A stretch of 64,000 nt of DNA, taken from IMG/VR virus record IMGVR_UViG_2862561106_000004, positions 4,451-68,450 of that record; one strand, written 5' to 3'. This document shows, one piece after another, positions 54,174-57,610 of the stretch. A model generated the notes under the pieces. The model ran no database searches. It saw only the letters and a list, made by a program, of their open reading frames with translations, and was not told the origin of the DNA. The stretch comes from a virus. Its lineage: Duplodnaviria > Caudoviricetes. The position numbers were made by a program, and so were the translations under genes. Numbering within the stretch: the stretch's first letter is position 1; each line of letters begins with the position of its first letter.

Positions 54174-55530
54174 ATGAGTCGCGGAAAGCATCGTAAGGAA
54201 AACACTCCGACCAAGACGGTGCGTCGCGTGGGGACGGTTGTCGCCCTCGGCGGCGCAGCAGTGCTCCCTGGTAGTTTCGCCGCCAGCTCCGCCAGTGCGG
54301 CCACCGCCGCCGAGTGGGACAAGACGGCGATGTGCGAGTCCTCCGGCAACTGGGCGATCAACACCGGCAACGGCTACTACGGCGGCGTCCAGTTCGCTCA
54401 GTCGACGTGGGTCGCGTACGGCGGGACCGCCTTCGCGCCGCGCGCCGACCTGGCGACGAAGGAGCAGCAGATCCGCGTGGCCGAGCGGGTGCTTCACGAG
54501 GGCTGGCAGAACTTCAAGCCGCAGGGCAAGGGGCGCGTGGCCGGTCTGCGGCGTCGGCCTGTCGAACACGCCGTACGGCGGTGTCGCAACCCCGACGCCG
54601 GCCCCGAAGCCGACGCCTCCGCCGGCCACTGGCGGCGACACGTACACCGTCAAGGCCGGTGACTACCTGATCAAGATCGCCCGGGAGCTCAACGTGCCCG
54701 GCGGCTGGCAGGCCCTCTACGAGGCCAACAAGGCGGTCATCGGAGACAGCCCCGACCGGCTGAAGATCGGTATGGAGCTGAGGGTGCCCGGCGCGGCCTC
54801 CAGCGACTCGTACGCCGACGGACTGCCGAAGCCGAACCAGCAGCAGCCGTCCGCGGTGCAACTCCAGGAGGAGCTGAAGCGCGTCGGCTACATGGACAAG
54901 GCCGTTCAGACGCACCCCAACTACGGGCCGAAGACCCAGGCCGCCGTCGTGGCCTTCCACGACGAGCACCCCGAGTACGCCCAGGGCGACCGGGACCCGG
55001 CCATCGGCCCGAAGGGCTGGGCGCACCTGCGCGACATGTCGACGGGCGGCGCCAGCGAGCAGCAGCCGGCGGACCCGAAGCCGGCCCCGAAGCCGGACGA
55101 CCCTGCGCCGGCGCCGAGCGCCCGGTTCGTGTCCCCGATCGACGCCAGCGTGAGCCAGCGGTTCGGCAACCCCAGGGCCAGCTACGCCCTCGGCTACCAC
55201 ACCGGCACCGACTTCACCGCGCCGACCGGCACCGTCGTGAAGGCCCCGACCGCCGGTGTCGTCGTCGCCTCGGACGGCTCCTCGTCGTACGGCATCAACG
55301 TGCAGCTCCGCCACGCGGACGGCAAGCACACCCTGTACGCCCACCTGTCCGGCAAGAACGTCAGCGTCGGCCAGACCGTCAAGGCCGGCGACGTCATCGG
55401 CTACGTCGGCTCCACCGGCAACAGCACCGGCCCGCACCTCCACATGGAGCTGCGCCTGGCGCCCCGTTTCGCGGCCGGCAACTTCCTGGACCCGGTCCAG
55501 TGGCTCCGCTCCAACGGAGTAAACATCTAA
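54174..55530 (+). pseudogene. rpf: Secreted Rpf transglycosylase-LysM-PG-binding-M23 protein, split by one extra G at 54530-54533
   Basis: RGKHR signal, [35 protein letters not shown] split across frames; LysM YTVKAGD; M23 HTGTD, YAHL, STGPHLH. Confidence 0.85.
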
Positions 55531-55542
55531 GGAGAGATCTCG

Positions 55543-56037
55543 ATGTTGGAACCCGCAGATATCGAGCGCAAGCAGTTCACCGCCACCCGCATCCGGGAGG
55601 GCTACGACCAGGACGAGGTCGACGCCTTCCTGGACCAGGTGGCGGTCGACTTCGCCGAGAGGGACAAGCAGGTTGACTCCCTCCAGCAGCAGATCCGCCG
55701 CCTGAAGCGAGACCTGGACGCTGCCCGGCAGCCGGTCCCGCAGGACCCGGACCAGCCGAGCCTGGAGTCCGTCAAGGCGATCCTCGTCGCCGCGCAGAAG
55801 ACCGCCGACCAGGCCGTGGCTGATGCACACGCGCAGGCCGGCCAGATCGTCATCGACGCGCGCACCGAGGCCCGGCAGATCGTCTCCGCTTCGCACACGG
55901 AGCGGCAGAAGCAGATCGACGCCCTGGAGCAGCGGCGGGTGGAGCTCGCCGCGCTGATCAACGACCTGGGCGACAAGCGCGAAGAGCTCACGAAGTGGCT
56001 GAAGGGCGCACTGGAAGCGGTGGAAGCACATGCCTGA
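55543..56037 (+). CDS. divIVA: DivIVA-domain protein
   Basis: PADIERKQFTATRIREGYDQDEVDAFLDQV, then IL.AAQKTADQAVA coiled coil; AAGGAG RBS. Confidence 0.88.
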   Translation: MLEPADIERKQFTATRIREGYDQDEVDAFLDQVAVDFAERDKQVDSLQQQIRRLKRDLDAARQPVPQDPDQPSLESVKAILVAAQKTADQAVADAHAQAGQIVIDARTEARQIVSASHTERQKQIDALEQRRVELAALINDLGDKREELTKWLKGALEAVEAHA

Positions 56038-56191
56038 TCAGGAAGACCAGTACGAGCTGGTGAACGAGGAGCTGCCGGACGACGGTCCGGGGCCCTCGGT
56101 CGACAACGAGGAAGAGCTGCTGGCCGAGATGTTCGGTGAGCCGGACGACGGCGGCGTGTACGGAGGGGGTGATGACGATGGGGACTCGTGA
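56030..56191 (+). CDS. Small highly acidic protein (53 aa)
   Basis: MPDQEDQYELVNEELPDD...; overlaps both neighbours. Confidence 0.55.
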   Translation: MPDQEDQYELVNEELPDDGPGPSVDNEEELLAEMFGEPDDGGVYGGGDDDGDS

Positions 56192-57425
56192 CGGCATGGT
56201 CGCTCAGGCCGAGAAGTCCCTCGGCATGCGCGGCCGGCCGAACGCCATCACCACGGCGTACGCCAACCGCAACGGTTCCGGCTTCGCCCGCGCCGCCTGG
56301 TGCAACATGGCGATAACCGAGTGGGCCCGCGGTTCGGACAACTTCCAGGCCGTGTGTTTCGGCGTGGACTACGCCTACACCGTGTGGCACGCGCAGAAGT
56401 TCCAGTCGCAGGGTCGCTGGCACCGCGACGTCGCCGGCATTCAGCGAGGGGACATCGTCTTCTTCGACTGGGGCCAGACCGACAACGTCGGCGCCATCGA
56501 CCATGTCGGCCTGGTAACTGACGTGAAGGGCGGCAGCGTCTACACGATCGAAGGCAACACCTCCGACTCGTGCGCTCGGCGCGTGCGGACCGCTCGGGAC
56601 ATCGCCGGGTACGGCCGGCCGGCCTACGCCGAGCAGTCGGCGCCCCCGGCCCCGAAGCCCACGACCCCGGGCAGCGGCACCACCCACACGCCTCCGGCCT
56701 TCCCCGAGGGCCTTCGGCCCAACAGCACCAGCCCCTCGGCCCGCGGCCTCCAGAAGGCGCTGAAGGCCGCCGGCTACATGGACAAGGCCGTTCCGGAGGC
56801 CGACAACTACGGGCCGAAGACCCAGGACGGCGTCGCCGCCTTCTACCGGGCCAATGTGGAGCTCTCGTCCGGCGGGCGGGATGTCCAGATCGGCCCGAAG
56901 GGGTGGGCGGAGCTGCACCGCGAGGCGTACGGCTCCGGCTCGAAGCCGCCGGCCCCCGCCCCGCCCCCGCCGCCGGCCCCGGCCTCCGGGGAGCCGGCGC
57001 ACGACTACCGGCGCACCACCTACGGAGGCCGGACCGTCAACCAACGGACCAAGGCGATGCTCGAAGCCGCTGCCAAGATCCACGGCAGCGGCTTCCGGCT
57101 TTCCCAGGGGTCCTACAACCGCGGTGTAGCGGCCAGCGCCGGCACCCACGACGGGGGCGGCGTCGTGGACATCGCCTCGTCCAGCCAGGCCCTCGTCAAG
57201 GCCCTGCGCCAGGTCGGCTTCGCCGCGTGGGTGCGGACCCCCGCGGAGGGCTTCTCGTACCACATACACGCCTGCGCCATCGGTGACCGCGAGATGGCCG
57301 CCGGCGCCCGCAACCAGGTCCGCGCCTACTTCCAGGGGCGCAACGGCCTGGCCAACAACCGTGCGGACAGCGCTCCCGCGTCCGTCGGCCGGCCCTACCC
57401 CACCTGGGCCGAGAAGTACCGGTAA
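56178..57425 (+). CDS. Endolysin: CHAP, PG-binding and Zn-peptidase-like domains
   Basis: AWC..GDIVFFDW..DHVGLV..TIEGNT; YGPKT; AGTHDGGG.VD..HIH. Confidence 0.85.
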   Translation: MGTRDGMVAQAEKSLGMRGRPNAITTAYANRNGSGFARAAWCNMAITEWARGSDNFQAVCFGVDYAYTVWHAQKFQSQGRWHRDVAGIQRGDIVFFDWGQTDNVGAIDHVGLVTDVKGGSVYTIEGNTSDSCARRVRTARDIAGYGRPAYAEQSAPPAPKPTTPGSGTTHTPPAFPEGLRPNSTSPSARGLQKALKAAGYMDKAVPEADNYGPKTQDGVAAFYRANVELSSGGRDVQIGPKGWAELHREAYGSGSKPPAPAPPPPPAPASGEPAHDYRRTTYGGRTVNQRTKAMLEAAAKIHGSGFRLSQGSYNRGVAASAGTHDGGGVVDIASSSQALVKALRQVGFAAWVRTPAEGFSYHIHACAIGDREMAAGARNQVRAYFQGRNGLANNRADSAPASVGRPYPTWAEKYR

Positions 57426-57436
57426 GGAGACAGATC

Positions 57437-57610
57437 ATGATCAAGGTCGGATACATGGCCAAGGCCGTCGTCGCAGCCTTCGCTGCCGCGGCCGGCACCC
57501 TGGTCGCCGTCACGCAGGACGGCATGGTCGACACAGGCGACGTCGTCACCGTCGTGCTGTCCGTGCTCGGAGCCCTGGGCGTCACGTACGCCGTCCCGAA
57601 CAAGGGCTGA
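57437..57610 (+). CDS. Holin
   Basis: AAGGAG RBS; two TM segments, KAVVAA..GVTYAVPN. Confidence 0.75.
   Translation: MIKVGYMAKAVVAAFAAAAGTLVAVTQDGMVDTGDVVTVVLSVLGALGVTYAVPNKG

Follow-up and report, generated by a model that had tools for sequence, protein, structure and literature searches.

A minimal DivIVA-domain protein in the lysis cassette of a Streptomyces prophage, a candidate scaffold for positioning wall degradation

Why would a phage carry a homolog of DivIVA among the genes with which it opens its host? Accounts of phage lysis usually involve a holin and an endolysin and treat timing as what is controlled; the locus studied here raises the question of whether place might be controlled as well. 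The locus lies in a stretch of 64,000 nucleotides (nt) from IMG/VR record IMGVR_UViG_2862561106_000004 (positions 4,451 to 68,450), hereafter the window, which corresponds to positions 15656-79655 of contig C24 in a draft genome (G000) that comprises 6.4 Mb in 748 contigs. An earlier note on this DNA had listed at 54174-57610 genes for an RpfA-like hydrolase, a DivIVA homolog, an acidic micro-protein, a CHAP lysin and a holin, and had proposed that the phage focuses lysis at hyphal tips by co-assembling with the host polarisome or poisoning it. All of these genes were found there, on the plus strand, from Pfam and PHROG matches and from the list of open reading frames (ORFs). We propose, with a probability of about 0.4 for both statements jointly, that 53359-57691 is a lysis cassette closing the late operon of a prophage and that the DivIVA homolog within it, which we call mini-DivIVA (55543..56037, plus strand, 164 amino acids [aa]), serves as a membrane scaffold or adaptor that seeks out curvature and determines where the wall is degraded.

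The strongest result of our analysis is that the linkage between this gene and lysis genes is real. We compared 19 related loci, which count as 18 because L192 nearly equals L189 and which came from two Streptomyces genomes (L005 and L006), four IMG/VR contigs (L004, L189, L192, and L193) and thirteen metagenome contigs (L090-L102). A DivIVA-like ORF of 163-196 aa directly followed a wall-hydrolase gene in all of them (19/19), most often after a gap of 10-23 nt. The upstream gene matched the LysM/M23 hydrolase of the window in 17/19 loci, with the M23 domain matched in all 17 save L004 and, by tblastn, L005, the translation of which does carry M23; in the remaining two (L189 and L192) the upstream gene codes for a signal-peptide LysM-Excalibur-SLT protein. 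An endolysin homolog was located downstream in 16/19 loci, and the three contigs without one (L092, L094, and L097) end 1046, 258, and 760 nt past the DivIVA stop codon. Homologs of the acidic ORF and of the holin-like ORF were present in 8/19 and 4/19 loci, respectively. The earlier note had named beforehand, as a ground for giving up its proposal, that DivIVA would not be linked to lysis genes in other phages; the counts for the hydrolase and the endolysin speak for such a link.

These data bear on the possibility that mini-DivIVA is a passenger with no part in lysis, for example a gene of lysogenic conversion with an effect on the branching or septation of the lysogen, or a remnant. Related cassettes that contain no DivIVA (phages LazerLemon and Shagrat, see below) would fit a passenger, as would the lack of a match at E <= 1e-15 in 400/400 further genomes of the genus. 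Against it stands the fact that the gene keeps the same position in every locus, even where the identity of its product to the window protein falls to 29-31%. Moreover, the ratio of nonsynonymous to synonymous substitution rates (dN/dS) was 0.25, 0.25, 0.33, 0.37, 0.51, and 0.71 in six pairs, the lowest values being those of the closest pairs (0.25-0.37 in the three closest and 0.37-0.71 in the three more distant), which shows that mini-DivIVA is under purifying selection. The gene also has a strong ribosome-binding site (AGGAGA, 8 nt before its ATG), and the cassette contains no internal plus-strand site resembling a promoter or a terminator. We regard a passenger as improbable.

We then looked into the distribution of mini-DivIVA and found it to be rare in sequenced phages. 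A tblastn search over 50,697 phage records returned only two weak DivIVA matches, one in an unannotated 161-kb record labeled 'UNVERIFIED_ORG', which we did not count as a phage gene, and one in an unannotated 9.5-kb contig. No PHROG family matched the protein. A word-based protein search yielded 8 relatives at >= 40% identity. When a profile built from 19 sequences was run against 1.84 billion representatives, it retrieved 14,195 proteins at E <= 1e-3, which amounts to the entire DivIVA superfamily, and 61 representatives when the limit was set to E <= 1e-30. Judged by eye, many of the 70 best matches were 155-200 aa long with a phage-type start. In five proteins of this library (P0058, P0059, P0067, P0080, and P0085), the N-domain of mini-DivIVA was matched in 4-8 separate stretches of one protein, so that these proteins of 200-400 aa seem to repeat the DivIVA N-terminal domain in tandem. 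A further 53 metagenome loci (L103-L155) had no match to any cassette protein besides DivIVA, and their N-termini resemble those of cellular DivIVAs, many of them from gut Firmicutes.

To place the phage sequences relative to the cellular ones, we computed a quick maximum-likelihood tree from an alignment of 121 rows and 187 columns and placed the root on 5 Firmicute rows. Left outside the tree were L159 and L161 (genomes flagged as unpublished), L174 and L184 (ORFs that run off the locus), and those loci among L007-L084 in which the first 60 residues duplicated another row or no N-terminus could be located. One group (Shimodaira-Hasegawa-like approximate likelihood ratio test [SH-aLRT], 88) united the 19 phage-type rows with a row from a 1-kb metagenome contig, and a branch with an SH-aLRT of 96 parted the phage group from every one of the 96 cellular rows of Actinobacteria, among them the DivIVA of the host. 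A recent capture of the host divIVA gene was ruled out by the depth and separateness of the phage clade. Because the tree separates phage from cellular rows, mini-DivIVA reads as an old gene of a phage lineage that forms its own subfamily and not as a fresh copy of the divIVA gene of the present host. Its exact origin is unsafe to state because of the long branches.

We then analyzed the sequence of the protein. It matched the DivIVA family PF05103 with 59.9 bits (cut-off, 28) and the DivIVA domain TIGR03544 with 47.1 bits (cut-off, 22), and fell below the equivalog thresholds of both Wag31/DivIVA (NF050102, 45.4 bits against 260) and GpsB (NF010725, 42.8 bits against 91). By these scores, the protein qualifies as a true member of the DivIVA-domain family, in line with the DivIVA homolog of the earlier note. 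A phmmer search against solved structures returned 11 N-domain chains of GpsB, Wag31 or DivIVA (E, 3e-5 to 3e-3), the best of which were GpsB N-domains (E, 3e-5 to 7e-4). An AF2 model (predicted local distance difference test score [pLDDT], 87.1; predicted template modeling score [pTM], 0.36) consists of a helix at residues 4-9, a loop, a helix at 23-61, a linker at 62-73 and a helix at 74-163, the last modeled as a single helix with a pLDDT above 90. Both the phmmer matches and the model thus indicate the short helix-loop-long helix layout of the N-domain, which a Pro-rich linker joins to the long C-terminal helix. Foldseek agreed in kind, with 9 of the top 10 matches being N-domains of GpsB or DivIVA, all of them weak (E, 0.1-1).

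The DivIVA of the host, encoded on contig C50 of the same draft genome, has 386 aa with a Pro/Gln/Gly-rich middle as in Streptomyces. Two blocks align with it: residues 2-37 of the phage protein with host residues 3-38 (22/36 identical, 61%) and, in the second coil, residues 72-159 with host residues 188-286 (36/100 identical). Between the blocks lie 149 residues in the host and 34 in the phage protein, and after them 100 and 5 residues, respectively; for the first coiled coil of the phage protein (residues 38-71), BLASTP gave no alignment to host DivIVA. In this sense, the protein is a minimal DivIVA. The pattern leads to the main rival explanation, according to which mini-DivIVA is a decoy or a dominant-negative form that would compete with host DivIVA for polar sites or for clients of the N-domain, or would act as a poison subunit. 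Without the linker and the tail, it would uncouple the polarisome, and a late stop of wall synthesis at the tip would sensitize the wall or exclude competing phages that need DivIVA. The similar N-domain, the recognizably homologous second coil and the missing 149-residue linker and 100-residue tail are what such a decoy could look like, and there is a precedent in mycobacteriophage Fruitloop gp52, an early protein of 93 aa, which according to a review (PMC9262239) binds Wag31, inactivates it and thereby excludes phage Rosebush. That protein is, however, the product of an early gene in the same review, whereas mini-DivIVA is encoded in a lysis cassette. The phage copies also sit across a well-supported branch from the cellular rows and do not track the DivIVA of one host, and a missing alignment in the first coil with 36% identity in the second makes a weak ground for specific hetero-oligomers. 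We hold a decoy to be possible, if on the unlikely side. As for the co-assembly with the host polarisome put forward in the earlier note, it is not implied by the two sequences, because their identity is low outside the first 37 residues.

Our preferred reading of mini-DivIVA as a scaffold or adaptor draws on the residues conserved in its N-domain. Positions 17-18 were always [LI][RK] in the phage-type sequences (19/19), and the window protein has I17-R18, which would correspond to the membrane-binding pair F17/R18 at the loop tip of Bacillus subtilis DivIVA. The title of Protein Data Bank (PDB) entry 2wuk names F17A. The invariant residues of all 19 sequences include Y21, D27, and D31, and in an alignment to B. 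subtilis GpsB these three fall on Tyr25, Asp31, and Asp35 (with an offset of 3 in chain numbering), so that the phage protein carries the residues of the GpsB groove. According to Cleverley et al. 2019 (PMC6335420), this groove accepts the Arg-rich basic cytoplasmic tails of wall enzymes, and one client of GpsB is a membrane protein whose LysM domain is extracellular.

The gene directly upstream of mini-DivIVA encodes a candidate for such a client. Its Rpf part (54174..54533, plus strand, frame 0) matched PF06737 with 104 bits over profile positions 1-70 of 77, and the part that follows (54532..55530, plus strand, frame +1) carries LysM (PF01476, 29.9 bits), a peptidoglycan (PG)-binding domain (PF01471, PG_binding_1, 18.7 bits, under its cut-off of 23) and M23 (PF01551, 104.2 bits; cut-off, 28.7). 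The motifs H-x3-D and H-x-H, which we take to define M23, are visible in the translation. Thus, the Rpf-LysM-PGBD-M23 protein that the earlier note had read as the product of one ORF is split in the window: frame 0 ends at a stop codon at 54662, the remainder is read in frame +1 from about 54532, and the AWPVC segment with the conserved C-terminal Cys of the Rpf domain sits in frame +1, so that no single frame contains the complete domain. The break falls in a G run (54530..54533, plus strand), which in a DNA alignment with L005 and L006 has one G more than these relatives, both of which translate straight across the position. The Rpf and LysM/M23 parts were in one frame in 8/8 relatives that show both (L004, L005, L006, L090, L096, L101, L102, and L193), as judged by match coordinates. 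A programmed frameshift was rejected as unlikely, because the relatives read through in one frame and need none. The break stems either from a mistake in the assembly, in which case the intact hydrolase would have 450 aa, or from a genuine insertion that inactivates the gene.

At its N-terminus, the hydrolase has a long basic tail followed by an Ala/Gly-rich, hydrophobic, signal-like segment, and it is putatively exported by a Sec-type route. Residues G4 and H6 of the tail were invariant in 8/8 relatives. The Rpf domain is 63-70% identical to Rpf genes of the host on contigs C310, C744, and C175. The protein encoded on C744, an Rpf...M23 protein of 434 aa, has the same domain order, with 68% identity in Rpf and 46% identity over 159 aa between its C-terminus and the phage M23 part. 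In the nomenclature of S. coelicolor, this architecture, which matches that of the C744 gene, is of the RpfD type and not of the RpfA type named in the earlier note. A motif G-[KR]-H-R-[KR] ahead of the hydrophobic segment was seen in the phage hydrolase (54174-54200) and in the host Rpf proteins on C310 (minus strand, 3901) and C744 (plus strand, 12709), and also in a secreted host protein on C294 (plus strand, 1503), whose coding region matches the LysM part of the window gene. Rpf-like segments elsewhere in sequenced phages belonged mostly to mycobacteriophages (30/33 matching records), and those listed match in tape-measure genes. According to a review (PMC11356341), Rpf activity is raised by LysM and LytM domains, and Rpfs of this kind promote spore germination. 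The suggestion that a secreted phage Rpf wakes spores found no support in any analysis that we made, and the break of the Rpf gene in the window weakens a role for a secreted Rpf here.

How could mini-DivIVA act on lysis? DivIVA is described as binding negatively curved membrane and recruiting partners (PMC12361552). We reason that mini-DivIVA would be made late, alongside the lysis proteins, and would self-assemble on the inner membrane face at negatively curved sites, i.e., tips, branch points and cross-walls. There, it would concentrate or hold a partner encoded in the same cassette, and the wall would be opened at defined places. This proposal builds on the curvature binding of DivIVA and the adaptor N-domain of GpsB, combined with the conserved residues, the coil, the fixed gene position and the selection described above. 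The best candidate for the partner is a membrane-tethered precursor of the upstream exported hydrolase, because of its basic tail with the invariant G4 and H6 before the Ala/Gly-rich segment; the second candidate is the holin. In a more specific and, to our mind, rather improbable version, docking would be GpsB-like: the Tyr/Asp/Asp groove would bind the basic tail of the hydrolase (M-S-x-G-[KR]-H-...), the precursor would be held at curved membrane and the wall would be cut at tips or septa. Were this version correct, the phage might be copying a general, undescribed rule of Streptomyces, in which DivIVA positions wall hydrolases through a G-[KR]-H-R-[KR] tail.

Several points weigh against this role. 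That the protein binds the membrane, seeks curvature, self-assembles, docks a given partner or affects lysis is in each case inferred. Host DivIVA carries the same Tyr/Asp/Asp triad; the groove is therefore a feature of the family, neither phage specific nor peculiar to a lysis adaptor. The gene of the proposed client is frameshifted in the window while the DivIVA ORF is intact, and if the frameshift is real, either DivIVA is kept without its hydrolase client or the prophage is decaying. The hydrolase and DivIVA genes are not tightly spaced everywhere, since the gap is about 85-330 nt in L005, L006, and L091, and the conserved order could reflect co-inheritance in one phage lineage rather than a common function. 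The 61 representatives that the profile retrieved at E <= 1e-30 come without genomic context, and some members of the family may not be phage-borne. Finally, an IMG/VR contig of 83.8 kb (L194) has two adjacent, remote DivIVA-domain ORFs (3108-5735) with no match to the lysis proteins of the cassette nearby. Streptomyces hydrogenans JCM 4771 (L006) offers a relative with an intact hydrolase gene in a culturable strain, and Streptomyces sp. NPDC015131 (L005) carries another intact relative.

The genes downstream of mini-DivIVA encode the remaining lysis proteins. The first of them (56030..56191, plus strand) overlaps the genes on both sides and codes for the acidic micro-protein noticed earlier (53 aa, of which 20 are D or E and none K or R). 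A tblastn search with this 53-aa query found nothing, and the ORF at the position of gp34 in phage LazerLemon encodes an acidic homolog (43%) with a GEPD..GVYG motif in common. This LazerLemon ORF (L156, 3301-3504) is annotated as hypothetical and lies directly before the CHAP endolysin gene, which it overlaps. A role of the acidic protein as partner of DivIVA was set aside, given that LazerLemon has the ORF before its endolysin gene and contains no DivIVA. By its conserved neighbor, the acidic protein belongs with the endolysin, and by analogy with Gp1 of mycobacteriophage Ms6, it could be a chaperone or an inhibitor.

The next gene (56172..57425, plus strand) is preceded by a GGAGGGGG site before its ATG at 56172. 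Its product matched CHAP (PF05257) with 29.2 bits (cut-off, 26) and the endolysin family PHROG 21825 with an E value of 6.5e-44, and its CHAP domain is 52-56% identical to 11 annotated Streptomyces phage endolysins, matches which identify it as a CHAP-domain phage endolysin. The name CHAP lysin given in the earlier note stands and is incomplete, because the PG-binding domain is followed by a third, C-terminal domain that the note did not mention. The last 150 residues of the lysin had no Pfam family match, and a search of solved structures with the lysin sequence gave no match. In this C-terminal domain, H59, D66, H97, and H99 (H-x6-D ... H-x-H) were invariant in 8/8 aligned rows, of which two come from the tape measure of this same prophage, and the pattern is that of the metal-ligand motif of LAS enzymes. 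The model of the domain (pLDDT, 89) gave weak fold matches (E, 0.4-3.7; template modeling score of about 0.4) to Hedgehog N-domains, a Streptomyces Zn DD-peptidase and VanY/VanXY. Motif and model together make a LAS-type Zn peptidase probable. The tape measure (window 41060-47344, 2094 aa), which has an SLT transglycosylase domain at aa 1452-1518, also contains two copies of this H-x6-D ... H-x-H domain; the segments for these three domains lie at about 44504-44764, 45413-45613, and 46685-46927.

The last gene of the operon (57437..57610, plus strand) encodes a 57-aa protein with two hydrophobic segments, the C-terminal half of which is 76-90% identical in L004, L005, L189, and L192. It had no match in Pfam, PHROG or NCBIfam and no tblastn match in the phage records, and showed no similarity to the annotated holin of Shagrat. 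The holin assigned by the earlier note is thus a putative one, consistent with size, hydrophobic segments and position, and matched by no family or annotated holin. Mini-DivIVA could also be read as a membrane-bound regulator of lysis timing that would modulate holin assembly, be it as an antiholin or as a holin scaffold, with no spatial role. For this reading speak the operon shared with the holin-like gene and with two small membrane or coiled-coil proteins, and the fact that mini-DivIVA has, by sequence and model, the features of a coiled-coil protein that binds the membrane from the cytoplasm. However, its gene is tightly joined to the upstream hydrolase gene and not to the holin-like gene, a homolog of which occurs in just 4 of the 19 loci, and the cassettes of LazerLemon and Shagrat manage without DivIVA. 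We judge a pure timing regulator to be quite improbable.

Two further genes lie upstream of the hydrolase gene. The first (53359..53802, plus strand) codes for a 147-aa membrane protein with several hydrophobic segments, which has homologs in L005 (53% over 119 aa) and upstream of the LazerLemon endolysin gene (31% over 137 aa) and gave no family match in scans of Pfam, PHROG and NCBIfam. The second (53806..54162, plus strand) codes for a 118-aa protein in which a Gly-rich N-terminal segment precedes a coiled coil; it matches PHROGs 1397 and 24256, neither of which has an assigned function, and has homologs at the gp32 position of LazerLemon (44% over 109 aa) and in L005 (62%), and an Atlas search with the ORF at 53806-54162 returned no function. 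The genes of the cassette overlap or are spaced by 11-12 nt. A scan of 53000-58000 found no promoter-like sites and a sole strong plus-strand terminator-like hairpin, located right after the last gene (57657..57691; 15-bp stem with 12 GC pairs, followed by a T run), beyond which the genes are on the opposite strand. Because of these gaps and overlaps, the one strong terminal terminator and the opposite-strand genes beyond it, the arrangement fits a single operon. The earlier note had also described one operon, and the spacing, the ribosome-binding site and the terminator agree with it; the start, though, is probably at 53359, with the gene of the 147-aa membrane protein as the first of the cassette.

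The element that carries the cassette is an integrated Streptomyces prophage of about 67.9 kb, and the lysis cassette closes its late operon. The first 10.5 kb of contig C24 are ordinary chromosomal genes, and a 9-bp direct repeat, TTGAAGTTG, is found at C24:11076 (locus L088) and at window positions 63345-63353. The element of about 67.9 kb was identified as integrated because its in silico excision between the two copies re-formed a single long host ORF; the insertion site lies in the 3' part of a host gene. The window contains a tyrosine integrase gene (62218-63252, minus strand) and a helix-turn-helix (HTH) repressor-like gene (61232-61729, minus strand), a replication module (prim-pol and AAA_25 helicase) and structural genes, including those for the tape measure and for large tail proteins. 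Streptomyces isolates supplied the closest relatives of the region.

Other features of the window are recorded here. On the 3' side of the terminator, window 57703-60449 holds four reverse-strand ORFs with no family match and then a gene for a 372-aa HTH-plus-tetratricopeptide repeat (TPR) regulator, so that these genes separate the lysis cassette from the repressor/integrase module. With the post-terminator genes and mini-DivIVA as input, PADLOC returned only weak HTH and coiled-coil noise. In window 20001-24000, the G+C content is 0.58-0.64, compared with about 0.63-0.70 in the remaining window, and no ORF between 20919 and 24764 passed the filter on G+C at third codon positions (GC3). Ahead of the main structural genes, window 29356-30978 encodes a 540-aa protein with pectate-lyase-like right-handed beta-helix domains, which may be a depolymerase or a tail spike.

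If the proposed role is correct, a scaffold of curvature and polarity within the lysis cassettes of many diverged phages would add spatial control to lysis, and phages would steer where the filament of the host gets opened. Such control would suit a branching, tip-growing, filamentous host. A natural minimal DivIVA, made of an N-domain and one coil, would also help to define what is needed for assembly and for client binding. We found no publication on a phage-encoded DivIVA in the literature searched, which excludes most subscription journals. The component families are all known and, as far as we have seen, what is new is the combination, in which a homolog of a polarity scaffold is a conserved member of a lysis cassette.

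We then compared the locus with known systems. Mini-DivIVA shares with host DivIVA/Wag31 the Pfam domain, the N-domain (22/36) and the second coil (36/100), and differs from it in having 164 aa instead of 386, in belonging to a separate clade instead of the cellular one and in being encoded in a lysis cassette. With GpsB, the adaptor for wall-enzyme tails in Firmicutes, it has the Tyr/Asp/Asp triad in common; its C-terminal part is instead a DivIVA-like helix of 90 residues, it is actinobacterial and phage-borne, and its client is only a candidate. Fruitloop gp52 is likewise a phage product aimed at the actinobacterial DivIVA system and is not presented in the review as a DivIVA homolog, whereas the window protein is one and is encoded among lysis genes. 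The hydrolase has its own counterparts. The host Rpf...M23 protein on C744 has the same domains and the same G-[KR]-H-R-[KR] tail, whereas the phage gene is located in a prophage lysis cassette beside DivIVA and is frameshifted. The Tgl protein of Kayvirus, which is a phage lytic enzyme exported via a host transport system according to PMC7150955, is like the window protein an exported phage hydrolase.

The cassette as a whole is closest to that of Streptomyces phage LazerLemon (MH229865, gp31-gp35) and its cluster, where genes for homologs of the membrane protein (31%) and of the coiled-coil protein (44%) and those for a lysozyme-like hydrolase, the acidic protein (43%) and the CHAP endolysin (55%) follow each other in the same order. 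The LazerLemon cassette contains no DivIVA, its endolysin is shorter (252 aa), and its hydrolase is a small SLT-like transglycosylase with no signal peptide evident by eye. Rhodococcus phage Shagrat has tail proteins in common with the prophage (45-56% identical), and there one small ORF, the endolysin gene and the holin gene come after the tail genes, with no DivIVA at that place. Since these cassettes do without DivIVA, the comparison of gene orders points to the exported multidomain hydrolase and DivIVA as the additions that mark this clade.

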